This document shows, piece after piece, positions 18,460-62,335 of a stretch of DNA of 64,000 nucleotides. A program made the position numbers and the translations under genes. Source of the DNA: a virus; the UHGV virus genome UHGV-0277313; one strand, written 5' to 3'. Numbering within the stretch: the stretch's first letter is position 1; each line of letters opens with the position of its first letter. The notes below the pieces were generated by a model. The model was not told where the DNA came from and did no database searches. It saw nothing but the letters and a program-made list of their open reading frames with translations.

Positions 18460-21213
18460 TTACATAACACCTAACAATTCGTCTTGATCAGTTAAATCTT
18501 TTGCATGCTTGCACCATTGATTATTATACATTATTAAAGTTTTATCAATTCCTATCTTTGGGTTTTTTATAGGGAATTTATGATCTGGCGTGCATCTTAT
18601 GCTCTGTCCGTTTTCCAACTCTATTTCAACTAACTCATTTACTTCTTTAGTACATTCACAATTATTAATATTATTCCAAGTAAACGTCCCATCAAGTTCT
18701 CTAGTTTTTACTTTATATTGATTACAACTTTTTGCAATATCTTCTATTCTTATATTTCCACTATCTGTTACAACTTCTGTATCACCTGTTAAACAACCAA
18801 AGACACTGTAACCAATAATGTGATTAATATTTGAACCTACCGACAAGTATACATTGTTTGGAAACCTAATGCCATTGCCTTGACGACAGAATGGAACCGG
18901 ATCATTTGGCCCAAACGAATCGAAAGCCGTCATTTTACGAACTTCATGAAAACATGGCGAATTACGAATCATTTCCAATACAGGCTTTAATGCAGTATCC
19001 TGCGCTTGCTGCAATGTAACAGAAATCATCAATGCAGATAAAACAGTATCAGGTGCAATATTGAATAATTTATGAGGCGATCTTAAACAACATATACGAT
19101 AAAGTGCATAAATTAAACCTCTACGCGCAATAGTTGATTTTCCTGAATTGTGTAAAATAATTAAATTTCCTGAATCCGTTACTACAGCAAAATTGTGATA
19201 AACAGGGACTTCTATATCATAGACCGCACATTTTTTATCAAGATCCTGCACATTTTTAACAGTAACACTACCATTATTTGCACACAATATATCATTCTTT
19301 TTTAAATCTTTCGCTTCAACATAATGACCTGAACTCAATAGAAATCTATGATCGCTCGTACATTCTAACGTTGTTCCGTCAGATAAACTAACACTTAATA
19401 CCTTTCTATTCTTTCCAGTACAACGCGCATTAAAAGCTTTTGCTTTTACAAATACATTATTTTTAATGTCATACGATAAAACATTAAATTCATTATCTTC
19501 ACCTAAACTTGCTAAATTTTCAATGGACACTAGTTTGTTATCAGACAATATTTTTGTATCACCAGACAAACAACCAATACTTCCACGAAAAACACAATTA
19601 GAAGCATATACCCCACTGTTAATTGCAAAATTATGATTGCCACGAATACAAACGTTGAAAGTGGATTCGCTTTTTTCTAACAATTTTATACTAACAATTT
19701 TATGATTATATTTGATTTCAACTTTTGTGTTAATATCAAACTTATTGCACCAGGCCTTTAAAGTCTTTACTTTAATACAAGCATTACTTGCACATTCCTC
19801 TATAGTATAACCACAACTTAATATATACCTAACTTCTTCTTCAGTCACCTTTTTTAATAAATCTTTATGATTGATATTATAAAGTTTTAACTTATTGATG
19901 ATATAACATCTGGAACAATTTAATTTCCTTTCAACTTCTCTTAATGAAAAACTATTTTTTAAAGTTTCAATAAAACGCTCCTTTGATATATCTAACCTTG
20001 CTGAAGGATTATTTTTTAAGTTTTTTTCTCTTTGTTTTATTCTTAAATTTTCTTTTAATAATGCACCTTTTTCGCTATTCCAAAAAGCAACAGAAATTTT
20101 GGAAGCATAATTATCTTGCAAATTCCTCAATGACATACGTTTTGAAGCCAACTTATGTTGTTGTTCGTCTGCCCACCTGTTTGCTGAACCTTTTTTTAGT
20201 CTATTTTTTACAGAATCAACAACTTCTTTGACACCATTCTTATAAGCTTCGTTATACAATTTTAATTGTTTTCTTGCGAATTTTGTATGATAATCTAGAT
20301 GTGTCTTACTATCTAAATAAATTAAATTAGTTGGATTGTTATTGTATTTGTTACCATCTTTATGGTGTATGACTTCATAACGTACCCTTTCACCTCTATT
20401 CTTTACAGGTGCTTTATATTTTCTGCCATATTTCCACAATGCACTTAAACGATGTGTGTATTCTGAACTTGCAACAGAAATTTTTGAAGGTATGATTACT
20501 TTTTCATATGATTTCACACCTCTTGCAGTTTTGTCTTCAACAAACCTCTCAAAAGGCATTAATGAATCACCGACTTTTAAATCCTTTGTCAATACCCACT
20601 TATTATTTCTATTCAAAAATTTATGATTTTCAGTACACTTAAAAACTTTTCCATTATCTAAAGTTATTTCATAAACTCTCTTTTCACCACTATATTGAAT
20701 ACCTTCTATTTCACCGGGTTCGACAGAATGTTTTTGTTCGTTCCACGTGTATACATAACAACCTTCATAACCAAATAAACATAAATCTGCTACAGTTTTT
20801 ACAGAACCATCCATTAATGGAATTTCTACATCACCAGTAACACATTCAAAATATTGATTAGATGGATCAAATATTTTTGCTAAAATCTGTCGCCAATAAG
20901 GATAAATAATGGCATACGAATTGCCCATATATGCATCATCTTTCAAGAATTCTTGAATAGTTGGCATATGTTTTTTATAAAGCAAAACATCAAGCTGATT
21001 TAAAAACTGTTCCTGCCCTGTATAATACAAATAGAAACCCATTCTTTTTTCAAAATCAGGCAACTGTTCTAAACGTGAACCACGGGGAATTTGTTCTGAA
21101 TAAAACGAATAAATATCATTAAATTCTTTTGAATGTATCAAGTTAATAATGTTATCTTGATCTTCAACTGAATATACAGGAATTTGATAATTATTGTGTA
21201 AAATCTCAACCAT
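18460..21213 (-). CDS. terL: terminase large subunit, N-terminal precursor fragment: ATPase Walker A region interrupted by two inteins, ending in split-intein N-half (Int-N)
   Basis: Exteins YFE / CVFRGSIG / SGKSTIARRG...IIGYSVFG give P-loop GSIGSGKST and an ATPase domain aligning with T4 gp17; three Hint N-terminal blocks (CVTGDVEIP, CLSGDTKIL, CLTGDTEVV) with TxxH blocks. Confidence 0.8.
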   Translation of the reverse strand: MVEILHNNYQIPVYSVEDQDNIINLIHSKEFNDIYSFYSEQIPRGSRLEQLPDFEKRMGFYLYYTGQEQFLNQLDVLLYKKHMPTIQEFLKDDAYMGNSYAIIYPYWRQILAKIFDPSNQYFECVTGDVEIPLMDGSVKTVADLCLFGYEGCYVYTWNEQKHSVEPGEIEGIQYSGEKRVYEITLDNGKVFKCTENHKFLNRNNKWVLTKDLKVGDSLMPFERFVEDKTARGVKSYEKVIIPSKISVASSEYTHRLSALWKYGRKYKAPVKNRGERVRYEVIHHKDGNKYNNNPTNLIYLDSKTHLDYHTKFARKQLKLYNEAYKNGVKEVVDSVKNRLKKGSANRWADEQQHKLASKRMSLRNLQDNYASKISVAFWNSEKGALLKENLRIKQREKNLKNNPSARLDISKERFIETLKNSFSLREVERKLNCSRCYIINKLKLYNINHKDLLKKVTEEEVRYILSCGYTIEECASNACIKVKTLKAWCNKFDINTKVEIKYNHKIVSIKLLEKSESTFNVCIRGNHNFAINSGVYASNCVFRGSIGCLSGDTKILSDNKLVSIENLASLGEDNEFNVLSYDIKNNVFVKAKAFNARCTGKNRKVLSVSLSDGTTLECTSDHRFLLSSGHYVEAKDLKKNDILCANNGSVTVKNVQDLDKKCAVYDIEVPVYHNFAVVTDSGNLIILHNSGKSTIARRGLIYALYRICCLRSPHKLFNIAPDTVLSALMISVTLQQAQDTALKPVLEMIRNSPCFHEVRKMTAFDSFGPNDPVPFCRQGNGIRFPNNVYLSVGSNINHIIGYSVFGCLTGDTEVVTDSGNIRIEDIAKSCNQYKVKTRELDGTFTWNNINNCECTKEVNELVEIELENGQSIRCTPDHKFPIKNPKIGIDKTLIMYNNQWCKHAKDLTDQDELLGVM
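18463..18795 (-). mobile_element. split-intein N-terminal half (Int-N, 111 aa) of terminase intein 3
   Basis: CLTGDTEVV...IRCTPDHKF... ends at ORF stop without C-terminal HN block; complementary Int-C begins the next terL fragment. Confidence 0.75.
19147..19572 (-). mobile_element. intein 2 of terminase (142-aa mini-intein, no endonuclease domain)
   Basis: CLSGDTKIL...LECTSDHRF...VYHNFAVVTDSGNLIILHN then +1 Ser of SGKST. Confidence 0.75.
19597..20844 (-). mobile_element. intein 1 of terminase (416 aa, HNH-type endonuclease domain)
   Basis: CVTGDVEIP...FKCTENHKF...VIHHKDGNKYNNNPTNL...GNHNFAINSGVYASN then +1 Cys; codon positions checked against sequence. Confidence 0.75.
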
Positions 21214-28930: not shown

Positions 28931-28995
28931 GTTAAACCCCTACCCATTGAAAGTAAACTGATTCTAGAACAAAATAGCTTAATTGTCAACATAAA

Positions 28996-33573: not shown

Positions 33574-34536
33574 TTAAGATTGCGTTATTTTATTGAAACT
33601 CTTGAAGTATAATTTTAAGAAATGTCTGTACTCAATTCTCTTTTTATACCTATCAGAATACGAATCAGGCTTCATATTATCAGGATCTTCGTCGCCATTT
33701 AATTTAATTATTGTAACTGTTCCATTATAAAATTTTCTTAAGGTTTTGTAATTATTTATAATTTCAGCTCGTGAAACATCCCCGTCGAAACTAAACGAAA
33801 TTTCCGTTGGGTTTTTCGACGCGATAATTCTTGCTTGCGAATCAGCTAATACTTTACCAAAAATAGATACTGCAGTCACATCTTCAGGTGTATTACGGTT
33901 AGCTGCAATACCCGAAAAAACACCTTCAGTAATAATTACTTTACCATTTGTTGATACATTCTGAATATTCCAAACAGCAAATGATTTGTGACTTCCTTGA
34001 GGATTGATATATTTTGCTTCAGGGTTTTCTGATACATAATCACGTGCAACTAAATAAACAACGTTATTATTCAAATCAAACGTCGGAACAATAATCCTTC
34101 CCCGATATCTTCCTTGCCCAATACGGATATCGTATTTTTTAATTTCTTCAAACGTTATATTTCTTGAACGCAGATACTCAACTGCATTAACAAATGAACG
34201 ATCTATTTTTACTGAAATATTGTCCAAATCAATCAATTCAGCTTGAATTAACAGACCACTCGGTGATGTATATTTTATACGCTGTTTAGTATCAATGTTG
34301 TCTAGTTTATATCTTAATAATGCACCACCATTTACATAACCTTGTAATAGCTGATCTACTCTTCCAGACCACCCACATCGATAACAATGAAATACGTTTT
34401 TTTCAAGTGATAAACTTAATTTATAATCATCATAACGTTTACCTAACATTTTACAATTTGGACAATGTGTCACATATTGATCGACATTCGATGTTAAGCT
34501 TACATCTCTCAAACTTTCAACGCGTACATCACACAT
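33574..34536 (-). CDS. DNA primase (gp61-like: zinc ribbon + TOPRIM)
   Basis: CPNCK...HCYRCGWSG zinc ribbon; TOPRIM-like IITEGVFSGIAANR...FSFDGD; directly downstream of DnaB-like helicase as in T4 41-61. Confidence 0.65.
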   Translation of the reverse strand: MCDVRVESLRDVSLTSNVDQYVTHCPNCKMLGKRYDDYKLSLSLEKNVFHCYRCGWSGRVDQLLQGYVNGGALLRYKLDNIDTKQRIKYTSPSGLLIQAELIDLDNISVKIDRSFVNAVEYLRSRNITFEEIKKYDIRIGQGRYRGRIIVPTFDLNNNVVYLVARDYVSENPEAKYINPQGSHKSFAVWNIQNVSTNGKVIITEGVFSGIAANRNTPEDVTAVSIFGKVLADSQARIIASKNPTEISFSFDGDVSRAEIINNYKTLRKFYNGTVTIIKLNGDEDPDNMKPDSYSDRYKKRIEYRHFLKLYFKSFNKITQS

Positions 34537-35408
34537 TATTTAACACCATTAGCAGCTTTTTTCATTTCCTTAACGTCATACGGCTCACATTCTTTCACTT
34601 GATTAGCCGCTTTATCAAAGTTTACATACACAGTTGTATTTGTTTTACCACGACGGGCTTTAGCAACATATAATCTCATTTTACCATTGTCAGACTCTTC
34701 ACGAGTTTGGTTTAATGTAACAATGCCATATGCCACATGCGCTTTTCTTGATGAATCAGCTAACATGTCTTGCGATGCCACTTCATTGTCTTCAGTGTTC
34801 CATGCAGCCTTTCCTAACTGTGAACCTGTAACAACAGGACAATTAAATTGGTCAGCTAACGCCTTCAAGTCATAAAAAATTGTACCCATTTCTTCATATG
34901 TACTTTCAGATGACCGTCGCGTTTGTTTGTTCGGTAACATTAAATCTGCATAGTCTACAATAATTAAACCAGGTTCAAAATTTTCCAAAGAATGTAACTT
35001 CGTCAAATATGTTCTCAAATGATTAGCAGATACTGTTTTATTAGAATAATAAATAGTCCTTACATTAGGTGCCCAATATTTAATTTTCTGCACACGCTGT
35101 TTGTATTTTTCAATTTGTGATTCATCCAATAAATCTCTCATTGACATACCAGTTGAACAGGAAATGATATTTGATAACACTTCCTTTTCAGACCACTCAA
35201 ACGAAAAATACACAACCGGGCGTCTCTGAAACATTGCCTGATATGCCAAAAAGCTCAAGAACTTACTTTTTCCACGACCAGGCGCTCCGCAGTTTTTACT
35301 GTAAAAACAATGACTTAGCTCGAAGTTGTGATACTTATTATTCACCGTCAAATTGTAAACAGGCACCTTTTCATCAAGGTGAATGCGTTTTTTATTTACT
35401 AATTTCAT
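34536..35408 (-). CDS. gp41/DnaB-like replicative helicase, C-terminal fragment (split-intein Int-C + RecA-like ATPase domain)
   Basis: MKLVNKKRIHLDEKVPVYNLTVNNKYHNFELSHCFYSKN (Int-C) then CGAPGRGKSKF (Walker A) and DnaB-like ATPase fold; ATG at 35408 with AAGGAAG RBS (track start 35411 is TTG). Confidence 0.8.
   Translation of the reverse strand: MKLVNKKRIHLDEKVPVYNLTVNNKYHNFELSHCFYSKNCGAPGRGKSKFLSFLAYQAMFQRRPVVYFSFEWSEKEVLSNIISCSTGMSMRDLLDESQIEKYKQRVQKIKYWAPNVRTIYYSNKTVSANHLRTYLTKLHSLENFEPGLIIVDYADLMLPNKQTRRSSESTYEEMGTIFYDLKALADQFNCPVVTGSQLGKAAWNTEDNEVASQDMLADSSRKAHVAYGIVTLNQTREESDNGKMRLYVAKARRGKTNTTVYVNFDKAANQVKECEPYDVKEMKKAANGVK
35292..35408 (-). mobile_element. split-intein C-half (Int-C, 39 aa) of helicase
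   Basis: DnaE-Int-C-like sequence ending ...HCFYSKN followed by +1 Cys. Confidence 0.75.
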
Positions 35409-35518
35409 CAATTACTTCCTTACTTAAACCCAACTTCAGAACATAATCCAAATCGTTTTTGTATAAAAACTTCAGTGATGTTATCACAAAATCAGACAGT
35501 TCGTCAACCTTTAATGTT

Positions 35519-36475
35519 TTAAAATTCATCATCTTCCGACAAATCTTCCGCTTTTTTATATGCAACACCTTCTGACCATATAACTTTTTCATCACCTTTT
35601 TTTGGATTTGTAATTCTAAATTTATGATCAGGTGTACATTTAATTGTATACCCATTATCAAAAGTTAATTCGATCAATTCGTCTGTATCTCTAGTTTTCC
35701 ATACATTATAAATATCAGTTTCGAAAGAGTTTCCATTCTCATCAACTGAATAGGCTTTTTTATCTTTAAAGTTGTTTACCAAATCTTTGATTTCGATGAA
35801 ACCTTTATTTGTTTTCACTTTTGTATCACCTGTTAAACAGAATACATACAGTTCACCTTTTGCAATGCCGCCACCAAAAGCGTCATCTAATGAAGGAATG
35901 CCTGTTGTGAACATATTATCTTTGCCATAACTGTCACGTAACATTTGAGGTAATTCATCAAGTGAACTAACCAAATCTAACCCAAGATTTGTTCCTGCAC
36001 CAACAGACAATGCATCATCGATAATAGATACGGCTTTTTCGTAATCATTTGTTTTATCATACATATCGACCAATTTACCAATTGCATCACGCATTGCAAC
36101 GCTTTTAGCAAAATCTAAAGCTTGATCTTTTATGTACTGTGCGTCTTCAATAACAGTTGTTGTTAAGCTACGAATCACTGAAGCAAAATTTTCTTGTTCG
36201 ACAATAGGAATTGCATATTTACTCGTATAATTATTCAATTCAGTCAACAAAACAGATTCAGTCGGTTTTGTATGATACTGTTCGTAATATGAAATAATCC
36301 ACTGACAAATATTTTGCAAATAGACATTATCAAAAAAAGAAGGTTTAATTAATTCCACGCCAACTGTTGATAAATAGGTGAAATCTTGAAATAATAATGC
36401 AACAATCTTTTTCTGCATTTCAACTTCAAAATTATATGTTGTATCCTGTACAACTTCTTCGTTTTCATTGTCCAT
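35519..36475 (-). CDS. gp41/DnaB-like replicative helicase, N-terminal fragment (DnaB N-domain + split-intein Int-N)
   Basis: DnaB N-terminal-like domain; ...GGGIAKGELYVF then CLTGDTKVKT...IKCTPDHKF... to stop. Confidence 0.8.
   Translation of the reverse strand: MDNENEEVVQDTTYNFEVEMQKKIVALLFQDFTYLSTVGVELIKPSFFDNVYLQNICQWIISYYEQYHTKPTESVLLTELNNYTSKYAIPIVEQENFASVIRSLTTTVIEDAQYIKDQALDFAKSVAMRDAIGKLVDMYDKTNDYEKAVSIIDDALSVGAGTNLGLDLVSSLDELPQMLRDSYGKDNMFTTGIPSLDDAFGGGIAKGELYVFCLTGDTKVKTNKGFIEIKDLVNNFKDKKAYSVDENGNSFETDIYNVWKTRDTDELIELTFDNGYTIKCTPDHKFRITNPKKGDEKVIWSEGVAYKKAEDLSEDDEF
35522..35839 (-). mobile_element. split-intein N-half (Int-N, 106 aa) of helicase
   Basis: CLTGDTKVKTNKGFIEIKDL...TIKCTPDHKFRI...; Cys codon position verified (aca at 35837-35839 on + strand). 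Confidence 0.75.
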
Positions 36476-36514: not shown

Positions 36515-38479
36515 TCAACCTATTCTCGATTCACCCATTTTTTTAATCAACATTTTAAATTGTTCTTCATTTATTTCTGGAATTCCTTCGTTTTCTAGAT
36601 GTTGTTTCCTTTCTCTAGTCCAAGACTCAAGATATGGATGTCCTTTGTCATTAAAATCTACAAACACTGAACAGTTCAATCCTTTATCTTTTCTTCTGGT
36701 TACGCGGCCGATTCTTTGAACATGTGAAATAATATTTTTTCCAGCATCCATCAAGATACCAACATCAAATTCAGGAACATCAATACCTTCATTAAAAACA
36801 ACGTTTCCAACAATTACACGATATCCTTCTTCACGAATTGCCTTTTTAATTGTTTCAGCATTTCCCTTGCGTTCGACAACAACATGTTGAACAATACCTT
36901 TTTTTGTTTTTTCAGTCGCGTCAATAGCTTCATAAATCGTATTACCACCACACATAAATAAAGCTTTAATTCCTTTATCCTTCATTTCACGTACTATTGC
37001 TTTTCCATGTTCAATACGATTAACCATAACCAAAATTTTTAAATTATTCTTGTAACAAAATTCAATACAACGATATGCTGCTTCATTCCTATTAAAACTT
37101 TCTGCAACATATTTCTTATATACATCTGTGCAAGATTTACAAAACACAAATGATTTTGGTGCATAATTAATATAATATGAATAAACTAAAGACGAATATC
37201 CTTTATCACGAAGATACTTTGATGAAATATAATAAAACGAATTACCAAACAACGCTTTTAAAACAATATCATCAACACATTGCCCACCTTCTTTAAAAGG
37301 CGATGCTGTAAACCCAATTAAATATTCAGGATTCGCAACCATTGCGGGTATTGCAATGCTCTGACAGCTGCCGTGATGACATTCATCAACTATAATAGCT
37401 CTTACACTTTTCAGATATCTCATAATTTTTGGATCGTTACGTTTCACCATATTCCAAACTAAATTATTAGTTGAAACAATAATATCTGAATTATCCAAAA
37501 CAGGGTTTCTGTTAAGATATTCAATTTTACGGTCAATACCACGAAGTTTAGCACGACCTTCAATTTGATTTAAAATATTTGTTCGATTATTAATAACTAA
37601 AATTTTCCCATCAATTAATTTAAACAAAGATGCAATGATTTCAGTTTTACCAGAATTATGTACAATCACACCGTTGCTTAATGCAAAATTATGCAAATCA
37701 CAATCAACCTCAATATCATATACAGGAATAGGGTCTACATAATGTTCAGCAAATACTTGCTCAACAACACGACTCCCATAAACACCAGCTACAGGTGATT
37801 CAGCTAAAAGATTGATAGCTTCTACATATTTTCCATTACTTAAAAGGAAAAGATGATCGGGCGTGCATTCAACTTTAACACCATCATTAAATTTAATCTT
37901 CAATGTATCTTTAACATATTTTGACAAATGTGCCGAAACAATTGAATGAAACTTTCCATCTGAACAAAAAACAGACTTTCCATTAAAATTCATACTTAAT
38001 GAACTTAAAGTTTCAAAACCAGTATTTGTTAAAATTAAAGTATCGCCAACAAAACAACCTGTCGCAGCTTCACAGATACCATGTTTATTAATCAAACATT
38101 TTAAAGTACCAATCAATTGATGTTCACGTACTTCAAAACCAGGTGAAGCTAGTGCCATTTCATTATACGCTTGCCTAACCTTTTGCATTGTTGACTTTAC
38201 ATCAATATCAATTACTTTACGCTGATCGATTACAGTTTCAAAATGAAAATACGGTAAAATCAAATCATCAACACAACCTGATTGTACATATAAAGAAGTT
38301 TTTGTATTTTCAACTTCCATATACAATGTAATCAAACTCTGCCCATCAGCTGACAGTAATGTCAAACGTTTTTTTATACGGTTAATAAAATCAGCATCTT
38401 CATCTGAAATTAAAGACCACATCGATTTCGTAATCGTTAACATTTTATTTCTCTCAATTAGACTGTGTTTGAAAAACAA
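36515..38479 (-). CDS. SF2 (DEAD/DEAH-like) DNA helicase with a mini-intein inside the Walker A motif
   Basis: Extein ...KHGICEAATG / SGKTEIIASL (AxxGSGKT); DECHH motif II; helicase C-terminal motifs (TASPFKEGG, HRIGRVTRR). Confidence 0.7.
   Translation of the reverse strand: MFFKHSLIERNKMLTITKSMWSLISDEDADFINRIKKRLTLLSADGQSLITLYMEVENTKTSLYVQSGCVDDLILPYFHFETVIDQRKVIDIDVKSTMQKVRQAYNEMALASPGFEVREHQLIGTLKCLINKHGICEAATGCFVGDTLILTNTGFETLSSLSMNFNGKSVFCSDGKFHSIVSAHLSKYVKDTLKIKFNDGVKVECTPDHLFLLSNGKYVEAINLLAESPVAGVYGSRVVEQVFAEHYVDPIPVYDIEVDCDLHNFALSNGVIVHNSGKTEIIASLFKLIDGKILVINNRTNILNQIEGRAKLRGIDRKIEYLNRNPVLDNSDIIVSTNNLVWNMVKRNDPKIMRYLKSVRAIIVDECHHGSCQSIAIPAMVANPEYLIGFTASPFKEGGQCVDDIVLKALFGNSFYYISSKYLRDKGYSSLVYSYYINYAPKSFVFCKSCTDVYKKYVAESFNRNEAAYRCIEFCYKNNLKILVMVNRIEHGKAIVREMKDKGIKALFMCGGNTIYEAIDATEKTKKGIVQHVVVERKGNAETIKKAIREEGYRVIVGNVVFNEGIDVPEFDVGILMDAGKNIISHVQRIGRVTRRKDKGLNCSVFVDFNDKGHPYLESWTRERKQHLENEGIPEINEEQFKMLIKKMGESRIG
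37655..38056 (-). mobile_element. mini-intein (134 aa) in SF2 helicase P-loop
   Basis: CFVGDTLIL...VECTPDHLF...VYDIEVDCDLHNFALSNGVIVHN then +1 Ser. Confidence 0.75.
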
Positions 38480-40993: not shown

Positions 40994-42355
40994 TTAAAAC
41001 TTATTAACATCTTGCATAAAGAAATTAACGAATCTTAAAGTTTTAGACTGAAAGACTCTTTCATCAAGAGGAAACCTATATTTAAATTTAGATTTCTTTA
41101 ACTCGGAATGAATCTGTTGCCAATTCACAAAACCAACAAAGCACTTTACTTCTTCCAACGAGTGTTTTACTTTGTCTAATAATGATTCTGTTAAATCTGG
41201 AAAGATCACATTCTTCGTTTTGGCTTTAATCTTCTGTATGTATTGAAGATTAAACTCATAGCATCTTCTACTGATTTCAATAGAAGATAACACCATGTCT
41301 GGTAATTCTAAATCTCTATAGACTAGATTACCAATAGTGGATGAATATTGTGGAGATATTTCTATAAACTTAATTCCATAAATATTGCATCTCTTTTTAA
41401 GATTATTGACTAATTTATTTCTACACCAATTATTATTTACAAGTCTATTGAAATTCTTTCCTTGTTTATTATCCTTGGACTTAATAGACAAATCCTCAAC
41501 ACCAAAACATTCGCAATGATAATGTTTTGCTATATCAACAAGAAACTTGGCTACTTTCAATGTTTCATATTGACGTTTATTGTTAAGATATTTTCTTTCC
41601 TTTGATGTTGAAGGTAATTTTAATTTCTTGAGTTTATACTCAATATCATTGATATTCTTTAATGATACTACACCTGAATTTATAGCCTTTAATTCATCAG
41701 ATGATTTCCAGTCTACGACTGACCAACCAACATAATTTGGGTTCATATCGATAGAAAATATTCTGTTTGATATTGGTTTAAATATCTTTTCTGACAATAT
41801 CATTTCATCAAATGAAATATATACAAATTTTTTATCTAATTTGTATGTGATTGGAGTATCTTTCAACTGTTGATGAATATATAATTTTTGTAATACTTTA
41901 ATTCTATTACCAACACCAATAAGTTTTAAGTGTATTCTGTTTTTAATTGTTGGACTAAAGTTGACTGAATAGCAATCTTCAGATAATCTGAAGAATCTAT
42001 TTCCCCTATAGTTTCTATCACCAATTGAACACAAAGATACTAATCTTTTTTCTTTAAATTCTTCATTTGATATGTTGTGTCTAAATCTTTGTTCGAATAG
42101 ACGTTTGCCACCAAATAAAACAGTTTCTTCTTTCTTCAACAAAAATGAAGCATCTTTTACACAAGATTGTCTGAACCATGATTTCATTAAATCAAGATTA
42201 TTGAATTGTAAATGTTTACAAGCAGTTTCAGATACGCCATCTTTTAATCTATTATAAAACAAATGAAGAAGATTATTATATTGCCTCTGATAATCAGCTA
42301 TCAACTGATTATCAGATTCTTTTTCTGCAATATACTTAATCTTCAATGTTATCAT
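40994..42355 (-). CDS. TnpB/OrfB-like RuvC-fold nuclease lacking the zinc finger (paralog 2)
   Basis: SIDMNPNYVGWS, FGVEDLSIK, IEISPQYSSTIGN, RDLELPDMVLSSIEISRRC; collinear with paralog 1. Confidence 0.6.
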   Translation of the reverse strand: MITLKIKYIAEKESDNQLIADYQRQYNNLLHLFYNRLKDGVSETACKHLQFNNLDLMKSWFRQSCVKDASFLLKKEETVLFGGKRLFEQRFRHNISNEEFKEKRLVSLCSIGDRNYRGNRFFRLSEDCYSVNFSPTIKNRIHLKLIGVGNRIKVLQKLYIHQQLKDTPITYKLDKKFVYISFDEMILSEKIFKPISNRIFSIDMNPNYVGWSVVDWKSSDELKAINSGVVSLKNINDIEYKLKKLKLPSTSKERKYLNNKRQYETLKVAKFLVDIAKHYHCECFGVEDLSIKSKDNKQGKNFNRLVNNNWCRNKLVNNLKKRCNIYGIKFIEISPQYSSTIGNLVYRDLELPDMVLSSIEISRRCYEFNLQYIQKIKAKTKNVIFPDLTESLLDKVKHSLEEVKCFVGFVNWQQIHSELKKSKFKYRFPLDERVFQSKTLRFVNFFMQDVNKF

Positions 42356-44199: not shown

Positions 44200-45525
44200 C
44201 TACAATTTTGCCTTAAAGACGGCATCTTTTATTTTATTATAAATAGATTGAAATTGTTCAACAATCCCCATAGTATGATTTAATTGTTTGTTGCTTGTTC
44301 GACCAAACATAATATATTGAACGGCATCTTTAAAGGCACCTGAACGATAATGAATATTCTTGCACCACATCTTAAAATTCTGTGTAACAACATGAATTAC
44401 AGTTGAATATTTATAATTCGTACTCAAAGCAATTTTAGTAATGTTTTCATATAGATATCTTAAATCTGCAACAATAACATCATCTAAAACATCACCATCA
44501 AAACGAAAACCTAATAATTGGCAATTTTCTAGAAATTCATTGAATGTACGCATACAAGTAAAGTTATGTATATTTGGATGTGCATCAACGAAATTTTGAA
44601 TTGTCGGATCTAATCCTTCTGTAACAAATTCAACAGGAATCGTTCTTTTCTGGCCACCAATTAATAAATTTTTCTTCAGTCTTTTGTGCTCTTTTAAAGT
44701 ACGTTGCATTGCAACCTTTTCCAAACGTTTACTATGTTTTGTAAACAATTTGGCAATATTCACATCAGGAATCAATAATGAAGGAACATAATTCGCTTCA
44801 TCAAATGTTTCAGGCTCACCTTCACATGTTTTAATACCCAACCCTTTACGAGTACCATCACCATGTGTTTTACAAAAATAGTGATATGCCACTAAAACAT
44901 TGATAATATTACCCCATTCTAATGAACCAAAACCAAATTCCTTATCGTCAAACCAACCATTTTGTGTTTGAATTGCCATGATGTCATAATCAATTGCATC
45001 TAATCTGGCAAGAATAATAGCTAAAGCGCAATCATGTGTATGAAAATCTTGCACCTTAACTAGTTTTTTATGTACAAATTCTTTTAATTCCAAAAAGACA
45101 TGATTCACTAAATTTGGGTTTTTAGCTAATATATCAATTGCATCTTCAGGTTTATATCTATTCAATGCTTCAATATCATATTGAACAACATTACCTTTAA
45201 TTACCTTACTTTTTTGTACTTTATATGTGCCAAATTGATCCGCCAGTTTTTTAAATACACTTCTCTTATTTTTAATTTTTCCACCACGATCAATACACCA
45301 ATCCATATTGGCAATCTTCATCTTTTCTGGTGCATAATATTGTAAAAATGTCGGGGTGAACCAACCGTAATGACTAGACATCGGCAACCCTGATTTAACA
45401 TACTTCTTCGTGAACTGACGGCCACCTAATTTGTTCATAGTTGTTACTGCAATTTTAGACAAGTCTTTTTTCTTATAAAAGACTATTTCTTCACGTAACT
45501 TTTTTAGAACATTAATAGGTAACAA
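44200..45525 (-). CDS. hypothetical protein (441 aa), first gene of minus-strand block, adjacent to origin-like region
   Basis: Long ORF; no motif recognised. Confidence 0.5.
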   Translation of the reverse strand: MLPINVLKKLREEIVFYKKKDLSKIAVTTMNKLGGRQFTKKYVKSGLPMSSHYGWFTPTFLQYYAPEKMKIANMDWCIDRGGKIKNKRSVFKKLADQFGTYKVQKSKVIKGNVVQYDIEALNRYKPEDAIDILAKNPNLVNHVFLELKEFVHKKLVKVQDFHTHDCALAIILARLDAIDYDIMAIQTQNGWFDDKEFGFGSLEWGNIINVLVAYHYFCKTHGDGTRKGLGIKTCEGEPETFDEANYVPSLLIPDVNIAKLFTKHSKRLEKVAMQRTLKEHKRLKKNLLIGGQKRTIPVEFVTEGLDPTIQNFVDAHPNIHNFTCMRTFNEFLENCQLLGFRFDGDVLDDVIVADLRYLYENITKIALSTNYKYSTVIHVVTQNFKMWCKNIHYRSGAFKDAVQYIMFGRTSNKQLNHTMGIVEQFQSIYNKIKDAVFKAKL

Positions 45526-45619
45526 TGTAGACCAACCTGTTTATCTAGATTTTTATCATAGAACACACTATAGTCTTGTTAAAAAACTTTGTCAACGATC
45601 TTTTTAAAAAAAATCAAAT

Positions 45620-45860
45620 CCTCTACTATATATACTCTTTTATTATATATATATATAAAGATCTGATCATCAAAGTGAATTTCATATCAGAGAAGTGAAC
45701 ATAGATAATATATTTAGATCAGATCAGATCTTTAAGATCATAGAAGAAAAAATAAAAAATCATATGATCACAAAATCAGATCTTATTAAAAAATAAAATG
45801 ATAGAAATATCATTAACTTGAAAAGATCTAAAGATGAATAAAGATTTTAAGATCTCTATA
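45620..45860. promoter_or_regulatory. origin-like element: (TA)n unwinding-type tract followed by a cluster of ten GATC sites in AAGATCW heptamers
   Basis: tattatatatatatataa then agatctgatcat ... tagatcagatcagatctttaagatcat ... atgatcac ... atcagatctt ... aagatcta ... aagatctc read directly; located at divergent strand-switch. Confidence 0.5.
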
Positions 45861-45892
45861 TTTTTAAATACTTAAGATATTAACATTTCATA

Positions 45893-46010
45893 GGGACTTC
45901 GTTCGCTTCGCTTCGCAGGGCTACGCTCACTTCGTCCCTGATTTGTTTCTTTCTTGTATTGTCCTGGGACCCGCCCCTGTTCACTACGTTCACAGAGCCG
46001 ACCCAACCTA
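45893..46010. other. GC-rich (about 58% GC) 120-bp island with CTTCG/TTCAC short repeats in AT-rich intergenic region; possible structured RNA or DNA-protein site
   Basis: gggacttcgttcgcttcgcttcgcagggctacgctcacttcgtccc...gtcctgggacccgcccctgttcactacgttcacagagccgacccaacc; GGGAC/GTCCC pairing possible; not a tRNA cloverleaf by inspection. Confidence 0.35.
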
Positions 46011-46340
46011 TTACTTAAATATTTTAATAAATAAAATAAATAAATAAATATATTCCAAAACTGATTCTCTTCGAAGAAAAGTCAATTGGTGATCATAAAG
46101 CTTAAAAGGTTTTACAGATAAAAAGGAAAATGTTAAAAAGAAAATAGGAATCCCAAAGCTAAAGGATAGAAATATTACACCCATATCCCCGCCAAAAAAT
46201 TTCCGAACGAATGAAATGAAGTTCGGAATAAACAAATATCCTAGCATTCGAATTTTTTGATATTTTAAAAATCAATATCAAATCTAAATTTAATGTTCTT
46301 AAAAGAAAATGTACTGTTTCAATGAATAGGAAATAGGTAA

Positions 46341-49160: not shown

Positions 49161-49219
49161 TTTTATTTGTTCTTTTTTAATATACTAGTTTAAATAACCG
49201 TTTTAAGGGGAATTATTTC

Positions 49220-51253: not shown

Positions 51254-51298
51254 TTGACTGAAGATAGTCAATAAACGTTCTTAACCTATAAAGATCAC

Positions 51299-51505
51299 TT
51301 GATCTATTCTAGGAGATTTGTTATGTGCACAAAATTTGAAATTAATGAATCAGTAAAAGATCGTTTAGAAAAGTCTGGTATTGAACTAACTGAACAAAAA
51401 TCTCAAGCAGAAGTTATTAGCGAAGTCAACCGTTCAAACATTGCTGTTGCTCGTTATGATGAAAAAAACGATAAAGTGACAATTAAAGAAAGTTTGAATG
51501 GGTAA
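51299..51505 (+). CDS. hypothetical small protein
   Basis: 68-aa ORF. Confidence 0.35.
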   Translation: MIYSRRFVMCTKFEINESVKDRLEKSGIELTEQKSQAEVISEVNRSNIAVARYDEKNDKVTIKESLNG

Positions 51506-54297: not shown

Positions 54298-54349
54298 TTT
54301 TGTTTATTAATAAGAATTACGTTCTTTAGTTTAATTCTAGTTTCTATTT

Positions 54350-56841: not shown

Positions 56842-56872
56842 GTTTTATTTAGAATATTTATATAAATTTTTA

Positions 56873-56901
56873 TTGACATATTGTTTTATTTGTTGTAATA
56901 T
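56873..56901 (+). promoter_or_regulatory. near-consensus sigma70-type promoter (TTGACA n17 TAATAT) upstream of endonuclease-like gene
   Basis: ttgacatattgttttatttgttgtaatat read directly, about 33 nt upstream of ATG 56934. Confidence 0.5.
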
Positions 56902-56933
56902 TATTTCATAAAATAAAGTTTAAGGTGTCTTTT

Positions 56934-58592
56934 ATGAAAAAAGCTATTTGTGAATTTTGCGGTAAAGAATATGAATATGATGAAAACAATATTCGTGTTC
57001 GTGAAGAAGGAAGAAAAGATTCGTATGATTCCTCGCGGTTTTGCTGTTTTCATTGTTTTTCAAAAGAACGTGTTAGAAAACAAAAAGAGACTCTATCTAA
57101 AAGATTGGGATACGAAGTAACCAGTACATTTCATCTTCCAGGAGTTCAAGAAAAAGCTCAAGCCACTAGTCTGAAAAGATACGGTACAAAATTCGGCGTG
57201 TGTTCAAAACAGTCCGTAGAAAAAAGAAGAAAAACGTGTAAAGAACGTTACGGATTTGAAATGCCGTTGCAGAATAAAGAAATTAAACAAAAGACGTATG
57301 ATTCAAATATAAAGAATCATAACGGTACGTATCACTTGCAAACCGAAGAAGTACGCGAAAAGTGTGCTGAAGGTCATCGTACTGATGAATATAGGGAAAA
57401 AGCAAGAAGATTGTTTGATGTTAAATCGAAACATACAGAGTTTGTTGAAAAGTATGGTGTAAGCAATCCTTTTCAATTAGAGTTTGTAAAAGAAAAAAGT
57501 AAAGAAACGTTGCTGAAAAAATACGGTGTTGAAAATATTTCTAAAGATGTTTGTACTTTAGAAAAACGTAGCAATACTCGTATGCTTAATGAAGCAATAA
57601 ATGTTGACAACTTAACAAAAGATTATTTGGAAGAAAATTTTGTTAAAGAAGAAAAGTTTCAATTAAAAGAAGCAGCGGATTATTTTAATGTAACATTGTT
57701 TGCAATGGATTCGTTTAAACAGCAGTTGGATATTGTTATTCCAAATGAAGAAAAGAAGAATAATACATTAGAAACAGAATTCTTTAATTTTATTTCTTCT
57801 TTAACTGATAAAGAGATTATAAGAAATACTAGAAATGTTATTTCGCCTTTGGAGTTGGATATTTATATTCCTACAATGAATCTAGCTTTTGAGTTCAATG
57901 GTGATTATTGGCATAGTGAAAATTTTGGCAGAAGTAAATTTTATCATATTGAGAAAACAAAACAATGTGAGAAAAAAGGAATTCGTTTAATTCATATTTG
58001 GGAACATGAATGGTTAAAAAATGATGAAAAGATCAAACTATTTATCAAAAGTCTTTTTGTTAAACGAGAAAAGATTCGAGCAAGTCAATGTGTGATCAAA
58101 GATCTATCGACAGAGGAGTTTGATAAATTTGCTGATAAATATCATTTGTTAGGTGCAACGTCAACTACAGCTGTTAAGTTTGGTTTGTTTTATGATGATA
58201 CTTTAGTTTCAGCAATAGGTTTGTCTTTTGATAGTAAACATGAATTCTGGAACTTGAAGCGTTACATTATTGGAGAATACCAAGTAATGGGTGGGTTTGA
58301 AAAATTATTTAAATATTTTATTGAAAAATACAATCCGGATAAAATTATTACTTTTGTTGAGTTGTCTAAATTTAAAGGTGATGTAAACTTTAAAAATGGT
58401 TTTGTATTAGATAAGGAATTAGCACCAGATTTCTTTTGGGTTATTAATGATGTCCGTGTAGATAAATGGACAGCATGGAGACAGTTTAAAGAAAGTGATG
58501 AAAATACCGCAGAGTATCAAAAAAAGATGAAAACTTTTGCATTAAAATGTTATGATGCAGGAAAAAGACGGTTAATTTGGAATAAAAGTTAA
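56934..58592 (+). CDS. homing-endonuclease-like protein: zinc ribbon + tandem RYGV-type repeats + Vsr-like PD-(D/E)xK nuclease domain + conserved C-terminal domain (paralog 1)
   Basis: CEFCGK...FCCFHC; repeats ERYGFEMPLQ / KYGVSNPFQ / KYGVENISK; PLELDIYIPTMNLAFEFNGDYWHSE...IRLIHIWEHEW resembles Vsr/DUF559-type nuclease core; ATG with AAGGTG RBS (track start is GTG). Confidence 0.6.
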   Translation: MKKAICEFCGKEYEYDENNIRVREEGRKDSYDSSRFCCFHCFSKERVRKQKETLSKRLGYEVTSTFHLPGVQEKAQATSLKRYGTKFGVCSKQSVEKRRKTCKERYGFEMPLQNKEIKQKTYDSNIKNHNGTYHLQTEEVREKCAEGHRTDEYREKARRLFDVKSKHTEFVEKYGVSNPFQLEFVKEKSKETLLKKYGVENISKDVCTLEKRSNTRMLNEAINVDNLTKDYLEENFVKEEKFQLKEAADYFNVTLFAMDSFKQQLDIVIPNEEKKNNTLETEFFNFISSLTDKEIIRNTRNVISPLELDIYIPTMNLAFEFNGDYWHSENFGRSKFYHIEKTKQCEKKGIRLIHIWEHEWLKNDEKIKLFIKSLFVKREKIRASQCVIKDLSTEEFDKFADKYHLLGATSTTAVKFGLFYDDTLVSAIGLSFDSKHEFWNLKRYIIGEYQVMGGFEKLFKYFIEKYNPDKIITFVELSKFKGDVNFKNGFVLDKELAPDFFWVINDVRVDKWTAWRQFKESDENTAEYQKKMKTFALKCYDAGKRRLIWNKS

Positions 58593-58660: not shown

Positions 58661-58849
58661 TTTAAAATAACTTTTTTAACTTTTTTATATTTTTTGTACT
58701 TAATTACTTGTTCTTAAATTTCAGATAGTTAAGTCTATCATTCATTTTCCTATTCGCGGCGTTATTCGGTTAACATTTCTATCACTTTCTCTATACGTTT
58801 TTGTATAGGGTATTTAATCGTTTAATAAACCTTGATTAGGAGAATTATA

Positions 58850-60402: not shown

Positions 60403-60449
60403 GTTTGTGATACAATTAATTTAGTTATTTTATTTTGAGGAAATTTATT

Positions 60450-62264
60450 TTGAATAGTAATTGGCAAGATGAGTTAAGAAAATTTTTCACTGAATATGAT
60501 TTTTCTGGATTTGTTTTGGAAATCAATAGTGGAAAAGAGTTTCAGTTTGGCAGTATCAGTCAAAATAAAAAGTTATTTTTAAATGTACAAAAAGAGTTGT
60601 CAAATTATTTTTCAAAACCTGGTGATTTAGGTGCATGTTTACTTTACCTAAAAGATCATTCAATAGATGAGTTGCTTAACAAATTAGAATGTCCAGTTTG
60701 TCATAAATTTAATGGTGTGTTTAGATTCAACAGACAACGTTGTGATGAGCATGTTTTTTGTTCAAGAGATTGTCGATATTCGTTAAAAGGTAAAACTTTA
60801 TTGATGAATCGATATAAAGAGAAAACAGGGTACGATAGTCCATATAGCAACCCAAAAGTTCAACAGAAACGAAAAGAGAACTTTTTGAGGAACTATGGTG
60901 TTGAATCGCCTATGCAAGTAGAAGAGTTTAAGAAAAGAAATATAGAAAGCAATAGAAACAATCACTGTGGTCTTCTAGCATGTCAGACTGAAGAAGTTAA
61001 GTTAAAAATAAAAGAAACGAATTTAAAGAATCACCATGGTGTGTTTAATTTGCAATTACCTGAAACAAAAGAAAAGTTAATTAAGCTGTCAAATGAACGA
61101 TATGGTGTAGATTTTCCTATAGCGAATAGTGACATCAGAAACAGACAGGAAAGGTTTTACGATGGTGTTGGTTTAGCATCATATATAATTAGAAAGAAAG
61201 CAGAAGAAACGTTTGGTGGGCCTTTAAACGGGTCTAATCCAATTATTTTTGAAAAGATGAAACAAACGGTAGAAAACAAAACAGGAAAGAGTTTTGAAGA
61301 AGCTGTTACTGAAAACATGCAACGTGGTTTAAAAGAAAAGTTTGGTGATGAAATAGGTTTTGCCAATGAAAAGATTGCAGCTAAAATTCAGAAACAGGTT
61401 GTTGAAAAATTTAACGTTCCTTATTTTTGTTTAACTGATAAATGTAGACAGGCAAATAAAAAGACAATTTCAAAAAGAAATGTGATGTTTGCCGAAAAGT
61501 TGAGAAAGTTAGGTTATGAAGTTGGTTTAGATTCGGTAAAGCTTGAGACTTTTTCATACGATATCTGTTTGGAAAAAGAAAAGATTTTGATAGAAATAGA
61601 TCCATCTTTTACACATAATTCGACAAGAAACCCGTTTGGTTCTGTACGGTTACCAGATTATCATTTAAGGAAATCTGAAGTTGCAAGAAGGTTTGGTTAT
61701 AGGTGCATTCACATTTTTGATTGGGATGATGAAAAAAAAGTTTTAGGTTTATTTGAAAAGAGCGAAAGAATCTATGCTAGAAAGTGTGAAGTTAGGGTAG
61801 TTGATTTTGAAAGTTGTTCAGAATTCTTAAATCGCTATAGTTTAACGAATTGTTTAACAAAAGAAGATGTTTGTTTATGTTTGTTTTATAATGAACTATT
61901 AGTTCAAATTATGGTTTTTGGAAAACCTAGAAAAGATAAAGACATTCAATATGAATTGTTGCATTTTTGTAGCAGAAAAGGTTTTAGAATCATTGGTGGT
62001 GTAAGCAGGTTATTCAGCTATTTCAAAAATAAATTTAAACCTGAATCATTAGTTTCATATTGTGATTTTTCAAAATTTGAAGGAGCTGTTTATGAAATTT
62101 TAGGGTTTCATAAAGTTGACGAATTGATACCAGTTTGTCATCTATCCAAAAAGAAACAACAATTCATTATTGAAGATAGTTGTGAAAAGATAGATTTGAT
62201 AGAAAAAGGTTTTGTAGAAGTTTTTGATTGTGGCTATAAAAAATATTTGTTTTGTGTAAAATAA
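60450..62264 (+). CDS. homing-endonuclease-like protein (paralog 2; zinc ribbon + RYGV-type repeats + Vsr-like nuclease + C-terminal domain); apparent TTG start
   Basis: CPVCHKF...CDEHVFCSRDCRYS; RNYGVESPMQ, ERYGVDFPI repeats; ILIEIDPSFTHNS...RCIHIFDWDDE nuclease core; no in-frame ATG near 5' end, TTG at 60435 or 60450 (latter has GAGGAA RBS). Confidence 0.55.
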   Translation: MNSNWQDELRKFFTEYDFSGFVLEINSGKEFQFGSISQNKKLFLNVQKELSNYFSKPGDLGACLLYLKDHSIDELLNKLECPVCHKFNGVFRFNRQRCDEHVFCSRDCRYSLKGKTLLMNRYKEKTGYDSPYSNPKVQQKRKENFLRNYGVESPMQVEEFKKRNIESNRNNHCGLLACQTEEVKLKIKETNLKNHHGVFNLQLPETKEKLIKLSNERYGVDFPIANSDIRNRQERFYDGVGLASYIIRKKAEETFGGPLNGSNPIIFEKMKQTVENKTGKSFEEAVTENMQRGLKEKFGDEIGFANEKIAAKIQKQVVEKFNVPYFCLTDKCRQANKKTISKRNVMFAEKLRKLGYEVGLDSVKLETFSYDICLEKEKILIEIDPSFTHNSTRNPFGSVRLPDYHLRKSEVARRFGYRCIHIFDWDDEKKVLGLFEKSERIYARKCEVRVVDFESCSEFLNRYSLTNCLTKEDVCLCLFYNELLVQIMVFGKPRKDKDIQYELLHFCSRKGFRIIGGVSRLFSYFKNKFKPESLVSYCDFSKFEGAVYEILGFHKVDELIPVCHLSKKKQQFIIEDSCEKIDLIEKGFVEVFDCGYKKYLFCVK

Positions 62265-62276
62265 ATTGAAAATTTT

Positions 62277-62305
62277 GTTGACATTTATTGTGTTTATGAT
62301 ACAAT
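62277..62305 (+). promoter_or_regulatory. near-consensus sigma70-type promoter (TTGACA n16 TACAAT)
   Basis: ttgacatttattgtgtttatgatacaat, about 30 nt upstream of ATG 62336; homologous to the promoter at 56873. Confidence 0.5.
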
Positions 62306-62335
62306 ATGATTATATATTGTAAGAGGTTTTTTGTA

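Follow-up and report, generated by a model that had tools for sequence, protein, structure and literature searches.

The viral genome UHGV-0277313 was analyzed over a stretch of 64,000 nucleotides (hereafter the window), whose largest non-coding region, an 815-bp spacer at positions 45526-46340, lies at the point where transcription diverges and contains a dense array of GATC sites. Here we have found that this array is strongly non-random and that it forms the only such cluster in the 64 kb. The best single explanation, which we put forward tentatively, is that selection maintains the array in one clade as a cluster of short palindromes of the AAGATCTT type, built into a long and conserved non-coding hub that separates the early/replication genes from the virion genes of a jumbo phage lineage of about 313 kb, and that it serves an origin control region in which a layer of GATC reading would set the timing. 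Judged from its sequence, the element looks like a replication-origin or packaging control element, in which methylation may take part.

A single dense GATC cluster in the spacer

An initial annotation, made from the sequence of the window alone, had pointed to ten GATC sites in about 200 bp, in a genome where one site per 300-400 bp was to be expected. Both numbers were borne out: ten sites lie within 195 bp (45660-45854), or eleven when an outlying site is counted (starts at 45597, 45660, 45665, 45717, 45722, 45727, 45736, 45766, 45779, 45825 and 45851), and the 168 GATC of the whole window correspond to one per 381 bp, dinucleotide shuffles predicting 190. The contrast is in fact stronger than had been claimed. 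Equally dense clustering was not found elsewhere in the 64 kb, the next densest 200-bp segment holding four sites. When the 168 sites were placed at random, none of 20,000 placements reached ten (maximum, 8), and for 11 sites in 284 bp the background rate gives a Poisson probability of 2.7e-10.

The cluster is also distinctive in the words that it is made of. AGATC is enriched 39-fold and AGATCT 160-fold in the array, which holds five of the 11 AGATCT words of the window. The sites had been described as AAGATCW heptamers, which is true in part: seven of the eleven read AAGATC on one strand, while the others are TGATCA (two) and NAGATCAG (two). The block of four GATC that had been singled out corresponds to tagatcagatcagatctttaagatcat at 45716-45741, and the alternating TA tract that was said to precede the sites is a (TA)7 run at 45644-45657. 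Symmetrizing 50 sites from three lineages (see below) gives the consensus AAGATCTT, with conservation stopping at its edges, and intervals of 5 bp and 9 bp between sites are frequent. Because the units are short and overlap (AGATCAGATCAGATCT, 5-bp spacing), a reader with a site of 4-6 bp is favored over a conventional operator of 10-20 bp; the layout thus favors a methyltransferase or a hemimethylated-DNA-binding protein, rather than a classical operator protein, as the candidate reader.

Outside the spacer, GATC is scarce. A maximal-order Markov model predicts 229 sites there and 156 were observed (observed/expected ratio, O/E, 0.68), making GATC the most depleted of the four-base palindromes tested; the corresponding ratios in two relatives, L001 and L017, are 0.55 and 0.50. 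This depletion implies that the word is read, or at least matters, in this phage-host system. CATG is likewise depleted outside 45526-46340 (O/E 0.73 by the same expectation), and distant relatives deplete GTAC and CTAG too. Going by word composition, the depletion of GATC and CATG is a signature of exposure to restriction or methylation systems.

The array in related phages

Relatives were found via homologues of the two proteins that flank the spacer, a 441-aa protein encoded leftward (gene 44200-45525) and a 497-aa protein encoded rightward (ATG at 46341), which were traced to metagenomic contigs. The near-identical strain L012 has 12 GATC in a spacer of 829 bp; in L017, with a 441-aa protein of 75% identity, there are 18 in 1056 bp (P = 7e-17); and L001, a 313-kb phage recovered in at least six independent assemblies (441-aa protein 69% and 497-aa protein 90% identical), has 20 in 1104 bp (P = 4e-14). 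The flanks of the array-bearing spacers contain 1-2.6 GATC per kb. These spacers align poorly, at 65-75% column identity with many indels, and most of their GATC sites are non-homologous in position; on this comparison, the number of sites is maintained while individual ones come and go. Contigs identical to the 313-kb phage also sit in metagenome-assembled genomes (L091, CALBJM010000301.1, 174,835 bp; L098, CALAFU010000156.1) that are labelled Erysipelotrichaceae and Melainabacteria, probably as a result of mis-binning, although they may possibly hint at the host or the habitat (gut-type samples).

More distant relatives, namely L003 (67% identity), L004 (63%), L007 (59%), L016 (51%), L014 (47%) and L008 (42%), have the same gene order with zero or one GATC in the spacer. 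Their spacers are of two kinds, short ones of 250-300 bp and ones occupied by different AT-rich short repeats, for example TAGAA(T/A). The array is therefore best regarded as a clade-specific addition to an older spacer, and not as the core of what the spacer does.

These observations bear on a different explanation, according to which methylation plays no part and the GATC is only the core of a recognition sequence. The AAGATCTT palindromes, together with GTGAAC boxes in the spacer, would then form an operator or iteron array that binds a phage or host protein and controls the divergent early and late units or the switch from early to late expression. The palindromic consensus with its A/T-rich flanks, the location with a sigma-70 promoter on one side and the beginning of the late block on the other, and the clade-specific presence are all consistent with such an array, and so are the arrays of other short motifs found at the same place in relatives (TAGAA(T/A) about 11 times in L003/L004, AAAGGTA in contig L066), which is the pattern expected of co-evolving protein-site pairs. 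However, numerous sites are spaced at 5 bp and overlap, or have no such flanks (CAGATCAG, TGATCA), and full-length operators could therefore not all be occupied; a longer operator would leave the genome-wide depletion of bare GATC unexplained; and there is no recognizable gene for a DNA-binding protein nearby. We consider this explanation rather unlikely.

Two GATC arms around a conserved center in easily melted DNA

The spacer can be dissected into the following features, from left to right (strand is given where a feature has one).

45567-45595, minus strand: sigma-70-type promoter TTGACA-17-TATAGT of the leftward 441-aa gene (44200-45525), 11/12 matches
45597-45600: outlying GATC touching the -35 hexamer, not conserved in L001 or L017
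45620-45657, plus strand: CCTCTAC box followed by a TA-rich tract that ends in (TA)7, conserved
45656-45668: left GATC arm TAAAGATCTGATC, two GATC, perfect 13-nt inverted repeat with 45722-45734
45669-45721: conserved center AGTGAAtTTCA ... GAAGTGAAC.TAGATAAT, two GTGAA(C) boxes
45716-45741: right GATC arm tagatcagatcagatctttaagatcat, 26 bp with four GATC, among them tandem AGATC units of 5 bp
45742-45880: distal, fast-evolving array with the GATC at 45766, 45779, 45825 and 45851, about 18% G+C
45892-45939, minus strand: GC-rich hairpin B (AGGGAC...GTCCCT), tandem GCGAAGC units on the minus strand
45960-46005, minus strand: GC-rich element A, consisting of the invariant TGTCCTGGGACCCGCCCCT, a variable covarying hairpin and AGCCGACCCA, also present in the podovirus contig L066
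46014-46053: AT-only tract, the least stable 40-mer of the window
46067-46175: conserved CTCTTCGAAGAAAAG inverted repeat followed by short repeats of the AAAGG type, comparable to the AAAGGTA arrays of L066
46201-46228: conserved hairpin TTCCGAAC-12 nt-GTTCGGAA, compensatory changes in L003 and L004
46294-46300, plus strand: TGTTCTT box, 46 nt upstream of the 497-aa gene, recurring near start codons in the phage

The most regular part of the array is its two-armed core. In the window, L001 and L017, two or three GATC precede a conserved center of 48-55 bp, which is followed by four or five GATC; the homologue of the left arm has three sites in L017 and two in L001. The half of the inverted repeat that lies in the right arm is GATCAGATCTTTA (45722-45734), and the TTTAGATCAGATC...AGATCTTT portion of this arm is conserved in L001, L012 and L017. 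The last five bases of the segment 45669-45721 (45717-45721) overlap the first GATC of the four-site block, so that the center proper measures 48 bp (45669-45716); the segment includes a weak promoter-like sequence, TTCATA-17-GATAAT (9/12 matches). The GATC of the distal array have positions that are non-homologous in L001 and L017.

The center of L017 (3805-3854 in locus coordinates) is inverted with respect to positions 45669-45716 of the window and to L001: alignments in reverse orientation scored 16.0 and 14.5, compared with 7.5 and 7.0 in forward orientation and a shuffled null of 5.1 (standard deviation, 1.7). Recombination or template switching between the arms has therefore happened at least once. 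The inversion could be an evolutionary event across the inverted GATC arms or the trace of an active invertible switch. Invertons consist of a segment that occurs in both orientations between inverted repeats; here a perfect 13-nt inverted repeat is present, the two orientations were seen between lineages only, and 50 bp is very short for looping by a recombinase.

The inversion is also one of several observations that would fit a non-functional by-product, in which a palindromic AGATC/GATCT 5-mer has expanded by slippage and hairpin-templated copying in an unconstrained, hypervariable, AT-rich spacer. The array contains tandem 5-bp units, the inverted center attests to recombination or template switching that involved both arms, and the assemblies of several relatives break in the spacer. 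Furthermore, between near-identical strains the array diverges faster than the rest of the spacer: 15 of the 26 spacer mismatches between the window and L012 fall inside the array region (284 of 815 bp), and GATC is not significantly avoided by the substitutions (one observed, 2.3 expected, P = 0.48, a comparison that, with one strain pair, has no power). On the other hand, three lineages with flanking proteins of only 69-90% identity have retained 12-20 sites despite the scrambled surroundings, the two-armed arrangement around a conserved center has been kept, and GATC is depleted elsewhere in the genome. A by-product is hence an improbable account of the array.

The breaks themselves occur at varying positions in independent assemblies of relatives (L004-L006, L014 and L015, each at position 1 of the contig), which suggests low coverage, repeats or strain-level hypervariability. 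They might also be taken as a sign that the spacer is a physical genome end or a concatemer junction, with terminal repeats and flanking short-repeat arrays as in T7-like phages. The contigs of L004-L006, L014 and L015 do stop inside the spacer, and L066 pairs the GC-rich element with long short-repeat arrays and a CCCCCC-TAC-GGGGG hairpin that are reminiscent of T7 ends. However, the contig ends differ, lying 338, 238 and 252 nt upstream of the gene in L004-L006 and 184 and 174 nt upstream in L014 and L015, which points to assembly trouble rather than fixed ends and led us to reject a fixed terminus, and the window as well as at least six independent contigs, some of 246-314 kb, cross the spacer uninterrupted. 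A genome end at this place is very improbable.

The array lies in the DNA of the window that melts most easily. The least stable 250 bp of the 64 kb are at 45624-45873 (nearest-neighbor duplex energy, -261.6 kcal/mol; mean, -302.9; standard deviation, 13.4; z about +3), and the two least stable 40-mers, 45623-45662 and 46014-46053, flank the array and the GC-rich element. The CCTCTAC box and the TA-rich tract at the left edge have been kept in all relatives, with or without GATC arrays. The TTGACA of the promoter of the 441-aa gene is also conserved, in L001, L017, L007, L008 and L003. As an alternative to an origin, the initial annotation had considered a methylation-gated promoter for this gene; the case for it turned out to be weak, the promoter being near-consensus and the outlying site at 45597, the sole GATC abutting its -35 hexamer, lacking conservation in L001 and L017.

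A possible origin control region

We propose that the features described above would work together as follows. The 250-bp array, with (TA)7 at its left edge, would be the DNA that melts. The GATC arms would bracket a core of 50 bp whose GTGAAC boxes may bind an initiator or a host factor, and a factor whose footprint spans 4-6 bp would read the numerous GATC words. The leading candidate for this reading is adenine methylation combined with a hemimethylated-GATC-binding protein, on the model of oriC and P1 oriR, which would couple firing to the state of replication or methylation. Synthesis may be primed by transcription that enters the array, as happens at the T4 origins ori(uvsY) and ori(34). 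The steps that we infer here are methylation, the binding of a factor and initiation at the array.

Several observations are consistent with this proposal. As the initial annotation had stated, the array is placed between divergently transcribed replication and structural blocks; scans for open reading frames and domains identified RecA-like and gp32-like proteins, a NAD-dependent ligase, a DnaB helicase split by an intein, a primase, several helicases and intein-laden large proteins in the minus-strand block (274-45525), and a T4-type portal, a prohead protease and a gp23-type major capsid protein in the plus-strand block that begins at 46341, with homing endonuclease genes on the flanks. The array heads the replication-gene block, at the divergence point and at a switch in GC skew, and is adjoined by other features that resemble those of origins (GTGAAC repeats, covarying hairpins with GCGAAGC units and AAAGG repeats). 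GATC clusters control replication at E. coli oriC and P1 oriR, and T4 origins consist of a promoter and an unwinding element. As to such T4-type features, an unwinding element is present in the spacer, and the promoters into the array are weak or unproven (the 9/12 sequence in the center and the CCTCTAC...TATATA block).

A number of points weigh against an origin. The origin proposed in the initial annotation is supported in part: the unwinding element, the position and the repeats fit it, but neither DnaA boxes in the spacer, nor a recognizable initiator, nor a methyltransferase in the window came to light. No DnaA box (TTATCCACA, at most one mismatch) occurs in 45526-46340, the whole window having 18 when 23 are expected by chance; domain, PHROG and PDB searches of the neighboring genes revealed no recognizable initiator beside the array; and no methyltransferase domain was found in about 49 open reading frames of the window scanned against Pfam. 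The GATC sites show no helical phasing or other periodicity (Rayleigh R did not exceed 0.21 at any period from 4 to 13.5 bp). The involvement of Dam and SeqA is pure inference; the binning of a related contig with Erysipelotrichaceae and Melainabacteria genomes says little about the host, and these groups are not known for SeqA. The GC skew, which had been suggested as a check, does change sign at 45-46 kb, but exactly where the coding strand switches, so that the two are confounded. Three plus-strand genes inside the minus-strand block have a skew near 0 instead of -0.2, which indicates that part of the skew is coding bias, and the counts at four-fold sites are too small and noisy to split replication skew from transcription skew. 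Moreover, T4-like phages replicate largely by recombination and do not need a single origin, and the distant relatives that have the same gene order and lack the array indicate that GATC is not an essential determinant of an origin.

Comparison with known GATC-rich control elements

The element shares with E. coli oriC and P1 oriR a high density of GATC in an AT-rich, easily melted segment that lies by other short repeats and replication genes. Unlike those origins, the phage spacer lacks DnaA boxes, iterons of the 13-mer or 19-mer kind and a recognizable rep or dnaA-type gene; while P1 has repA with 19-mer iterons, there are just two GTGAAC boxes here. In addition, the array is found in a lytic-looking jumbo phage with T4-type modules and is missing in its distant relatives. 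The origin of Vibrio cholerae chromosome 2, where RctB binds 11/12-mers with an embedded GATC that requires methylation, has repeated GATC-containing sites in common with the array, so that methylation could contribute to recognition of the array too; the array, however, has no longer iteron around the GATC, no regular spacing and no RctB-like gene. The T4 origins ori(uvsY) and ori(34) are comparable in that the phage has a T4-like gene content (RecA/UvsX-like, gp32-like, DnaB/primase) and that the least stable DNA of the region comes after a conserved TA-rich block resembling a promoter, but the phage spacer contains no MotA-type box or proven promoter, and T4 origins do not contain GATC arrays.

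The layout of the two arms bears a striking resemblance to the packaging site of phage P1, a possibility that the initial annotation had not raised. The P1 pac site spans 161 bp and carries seven TGATCA/G hexamers, four on one side and three on the other of a stretch that holds an IHF site and the cut site; its cleavage depends on methylation (PMC10028697). By analogy, the two GATC-repeat groups of the array might bind terminase around a cleavage region, with methylation gating the cut such that packaging begins late. The resemblance extends to the two groups around a conserved center of a few tens of bp, to the 6-8 core sites and to the position ahead of the late genes: the order of two or three GATC, a 48-55 bp center and four or five GATC is found in all three lineages, and the array is directly upstream of the virion-gene block. 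Considering the two-armed architecture by itself, a P1-pac-like site would fit about as well as an origin. Other features do not agree with it. The repeat is AAGATCTT-like, with just two of ten sites reading TGATCA, instead of TGATCA/G. Whereas P1 pac lies in pacA, the array is neither in nor beside a recognizable terminase gene, and no open reading frame of the window that was scanned, including the first four genes rightward, had a match to a terminase family. The distal arrays, with which the sites number up to 20 in 1.1 kb, and the low duplex stability would be unnecessary for a pac site. T4-type heads usually package DNA by a sequence-independent headful mechanism. We regard a pac-like function as unlikely.

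Taken together, these comparisons suggest that the element would work most like the GATC-rich control segments of oriC, P1 oriR or P1 pac. We have not filed it under any of the three because the features that define them (DnaA boxes, the TGATCA unit and the terminase context) fail.

A GC-rich element shared with an unrelated podovirus

On its right side, the array is followed in the spacer by two GC-rich hairpins (45892-45939 and 45960-46005), both of which fold better on the minus strand and show compensatory changes across lineages; the stem of hairpin B, for instance, covaries as GGGAC/GTCCC, GGGC/GCCC, GGGT/ACCC and GGAACG/CGTTCC. The two-hairpin element, which is embedded in a spacer of 20-30% G+C, is located at 45892-46005 in the window, 4373-4468 in L001, 3350-3460 in L017 and 9840-9985 in L066. 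The last of these is a podovirus contig with a T7-type portal and Bro-N/ANT genes, and its flanking genes are unrelated to those of the jumbo clade. It has an invariant TGTGTCCTGGGACCCGCCCCT, a variable hairpin and then AGCCGACCCA, as in GC-rich element A, along with hairpin sequences of the GCTACGCT type, AGTGTAAACTTC direct repeats and a long AAAGGTA array. A GATC array is absent from L066. Repeats of the AAAGG or AAAGGTA(A/C) type occur to the right of the GC-rich element both in the window (46095-46175) and in L066 (10150-10500, at least 20 copies in 350 bp), and by their sequence these arrays look like iterons. The Bro-N gene beside the shared element in L066 is unrelated to the 441-aa family.

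The two-hairpin element had no match in Rfam, and no copies were found in bacterial genomes beyond those on mis-binned phage contigs. A host origin of its GC-rich 17-mer was discarded, the bacterial matches being chance hits in GC-rich taxa and mis-binned copies of the same phage. That parts of this hub are common to unrelated phages indicates a function that is read by the host or is self-contained in cis. It is conceivable, though we think it unlikely, that the spacer is a portable, protein-free cis module made up of a GATC-armed core, a GC-rich double hairpin and short-repeat arrays, whose parts are swapped between unrelated phages (the jumbo myovirus clade and podovirus L066), and that the jumbo clade has added to it a GATC-methylation gate and a flippable core of 50 bp.

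Other features of the spacer, the phage and the window

Further to the right, the hairpin at 46201-46228 has homologues in L001 (4858-4886), L003 (1766-1808) and L004 (about 182-228). In the window, L012 and L017 it is followed on the minus strand by a T-run, which makes it terminator-like for leftward transcription. A GTTCT(T/A) box lies on the sense strand 24-56 nt upstream of at least 15 start codons, and in a few cases at 122-221 nt; examples are 46295-46300, 49169-49174, 51277-51282, 54321-54326 and 58710-58715 on the plus strand, and 45560-45564 and 28966-28970 on the minus strand. It occurs in the late block as well as in the early block, where TTGACA-type promoters lie immediately upstream of it, and the copy upstream of the 497-aa gene is conserved in all relatives. 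The box may be part of the 5' untranslated region or lie close to where transcription starts. Isolated AAAGATC sites also adjoin a GTTCTT box: a second TATAAAGATC...GATC motif directly follows such a box at 51283-51305, in the spacer 51254-51497, and L004 has GTTCTTTATATAAAAGATCTT ahead of its 497-aa homologue.

The window has a G+C content of about 30%. Megablast and blastn searches with the spacer, its flanks and L001 as queries gave no match at the DNA level in a set of 50,697 deposited phage genomes, in which the 497-aa protein has no tblastn match either. The nearest capsid protein from a cultured phage is that of Xanthomonas phage phiXF1, at 42% identity. Because a close relative is an IMG/VR contig of 313,762 bp, we assign the window to an uncultivated lineage of jumbo phages. 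Small open reading frames of the spacer are not kept between the window and L001, and no segment of the spacer is repeated elsewhere in the window. The window encodes no tRNAs, and Rfam searches, at the gathering threshold for the window and with E-values up to 10 for the spacer, gave only chance-level snoRNA and miRNA matches. A degenerate pattern search of IMG/VR returned only chance matches in GC-rich phages. Neither of the flanking proteins has a domain, Pfam, PHROG or PDB match; the 441-aa protein belongs to a family of six members, and its AlphaFold model (predicted local distance difference test score, pLDDT, 46) is unusable.

With regard to the other genes, the window has an unusually high intein load (14174-17521, 18460-21213, 34536-36475 and 36515-38479): two large open reading frames contain intein-splicing and HNH domains, one helicase has an intein fragment, and the DnaB-like helicase is apparently split over two open reading frames with an intein remnant. 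Paralogous homing-endonuclease genes at 56925-58592 and 60435-62264 (PHROG 3339, DUF7487) bracket the major capsid gene; the former has its own near-consensus sigma-70 promoter at 56863-56891, and a similar promoter at 62279-62307 is placed after the latter and before the next open reading frame. The open reading frames 274-5820, 5870-7588 and 10059-12392 (1848, 572 and 777 aa) had no Pfam matches. The label 'transposase' for gene 40994-42355 was rejected, since it came from a weak PHROG match that PDB and Rfam do not support.

Implications

Next to nothing is known about the replication origins and packaging signals of uncultivated jumbo phages, and the array described here is a sharply defined cis element that can be tested on existing data. 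The presence of the GC-rich element in an unrelated podovirus hints at a horizontal exchange of non-coding control modules. If the spacer is indeed a portable cis module, it would be a methylation-timed and possibly orientation-switching origin or packaging switch of a kind that has not been described for lytic jumbo phages. More generally, the roughly 40-fold concentration of GATC at one spot, together with its depletion elsewhere, suggests that adenine methylation, or another reader of GATC, may be used for timing by a lytic phage outside the classical enterobacterial systems.

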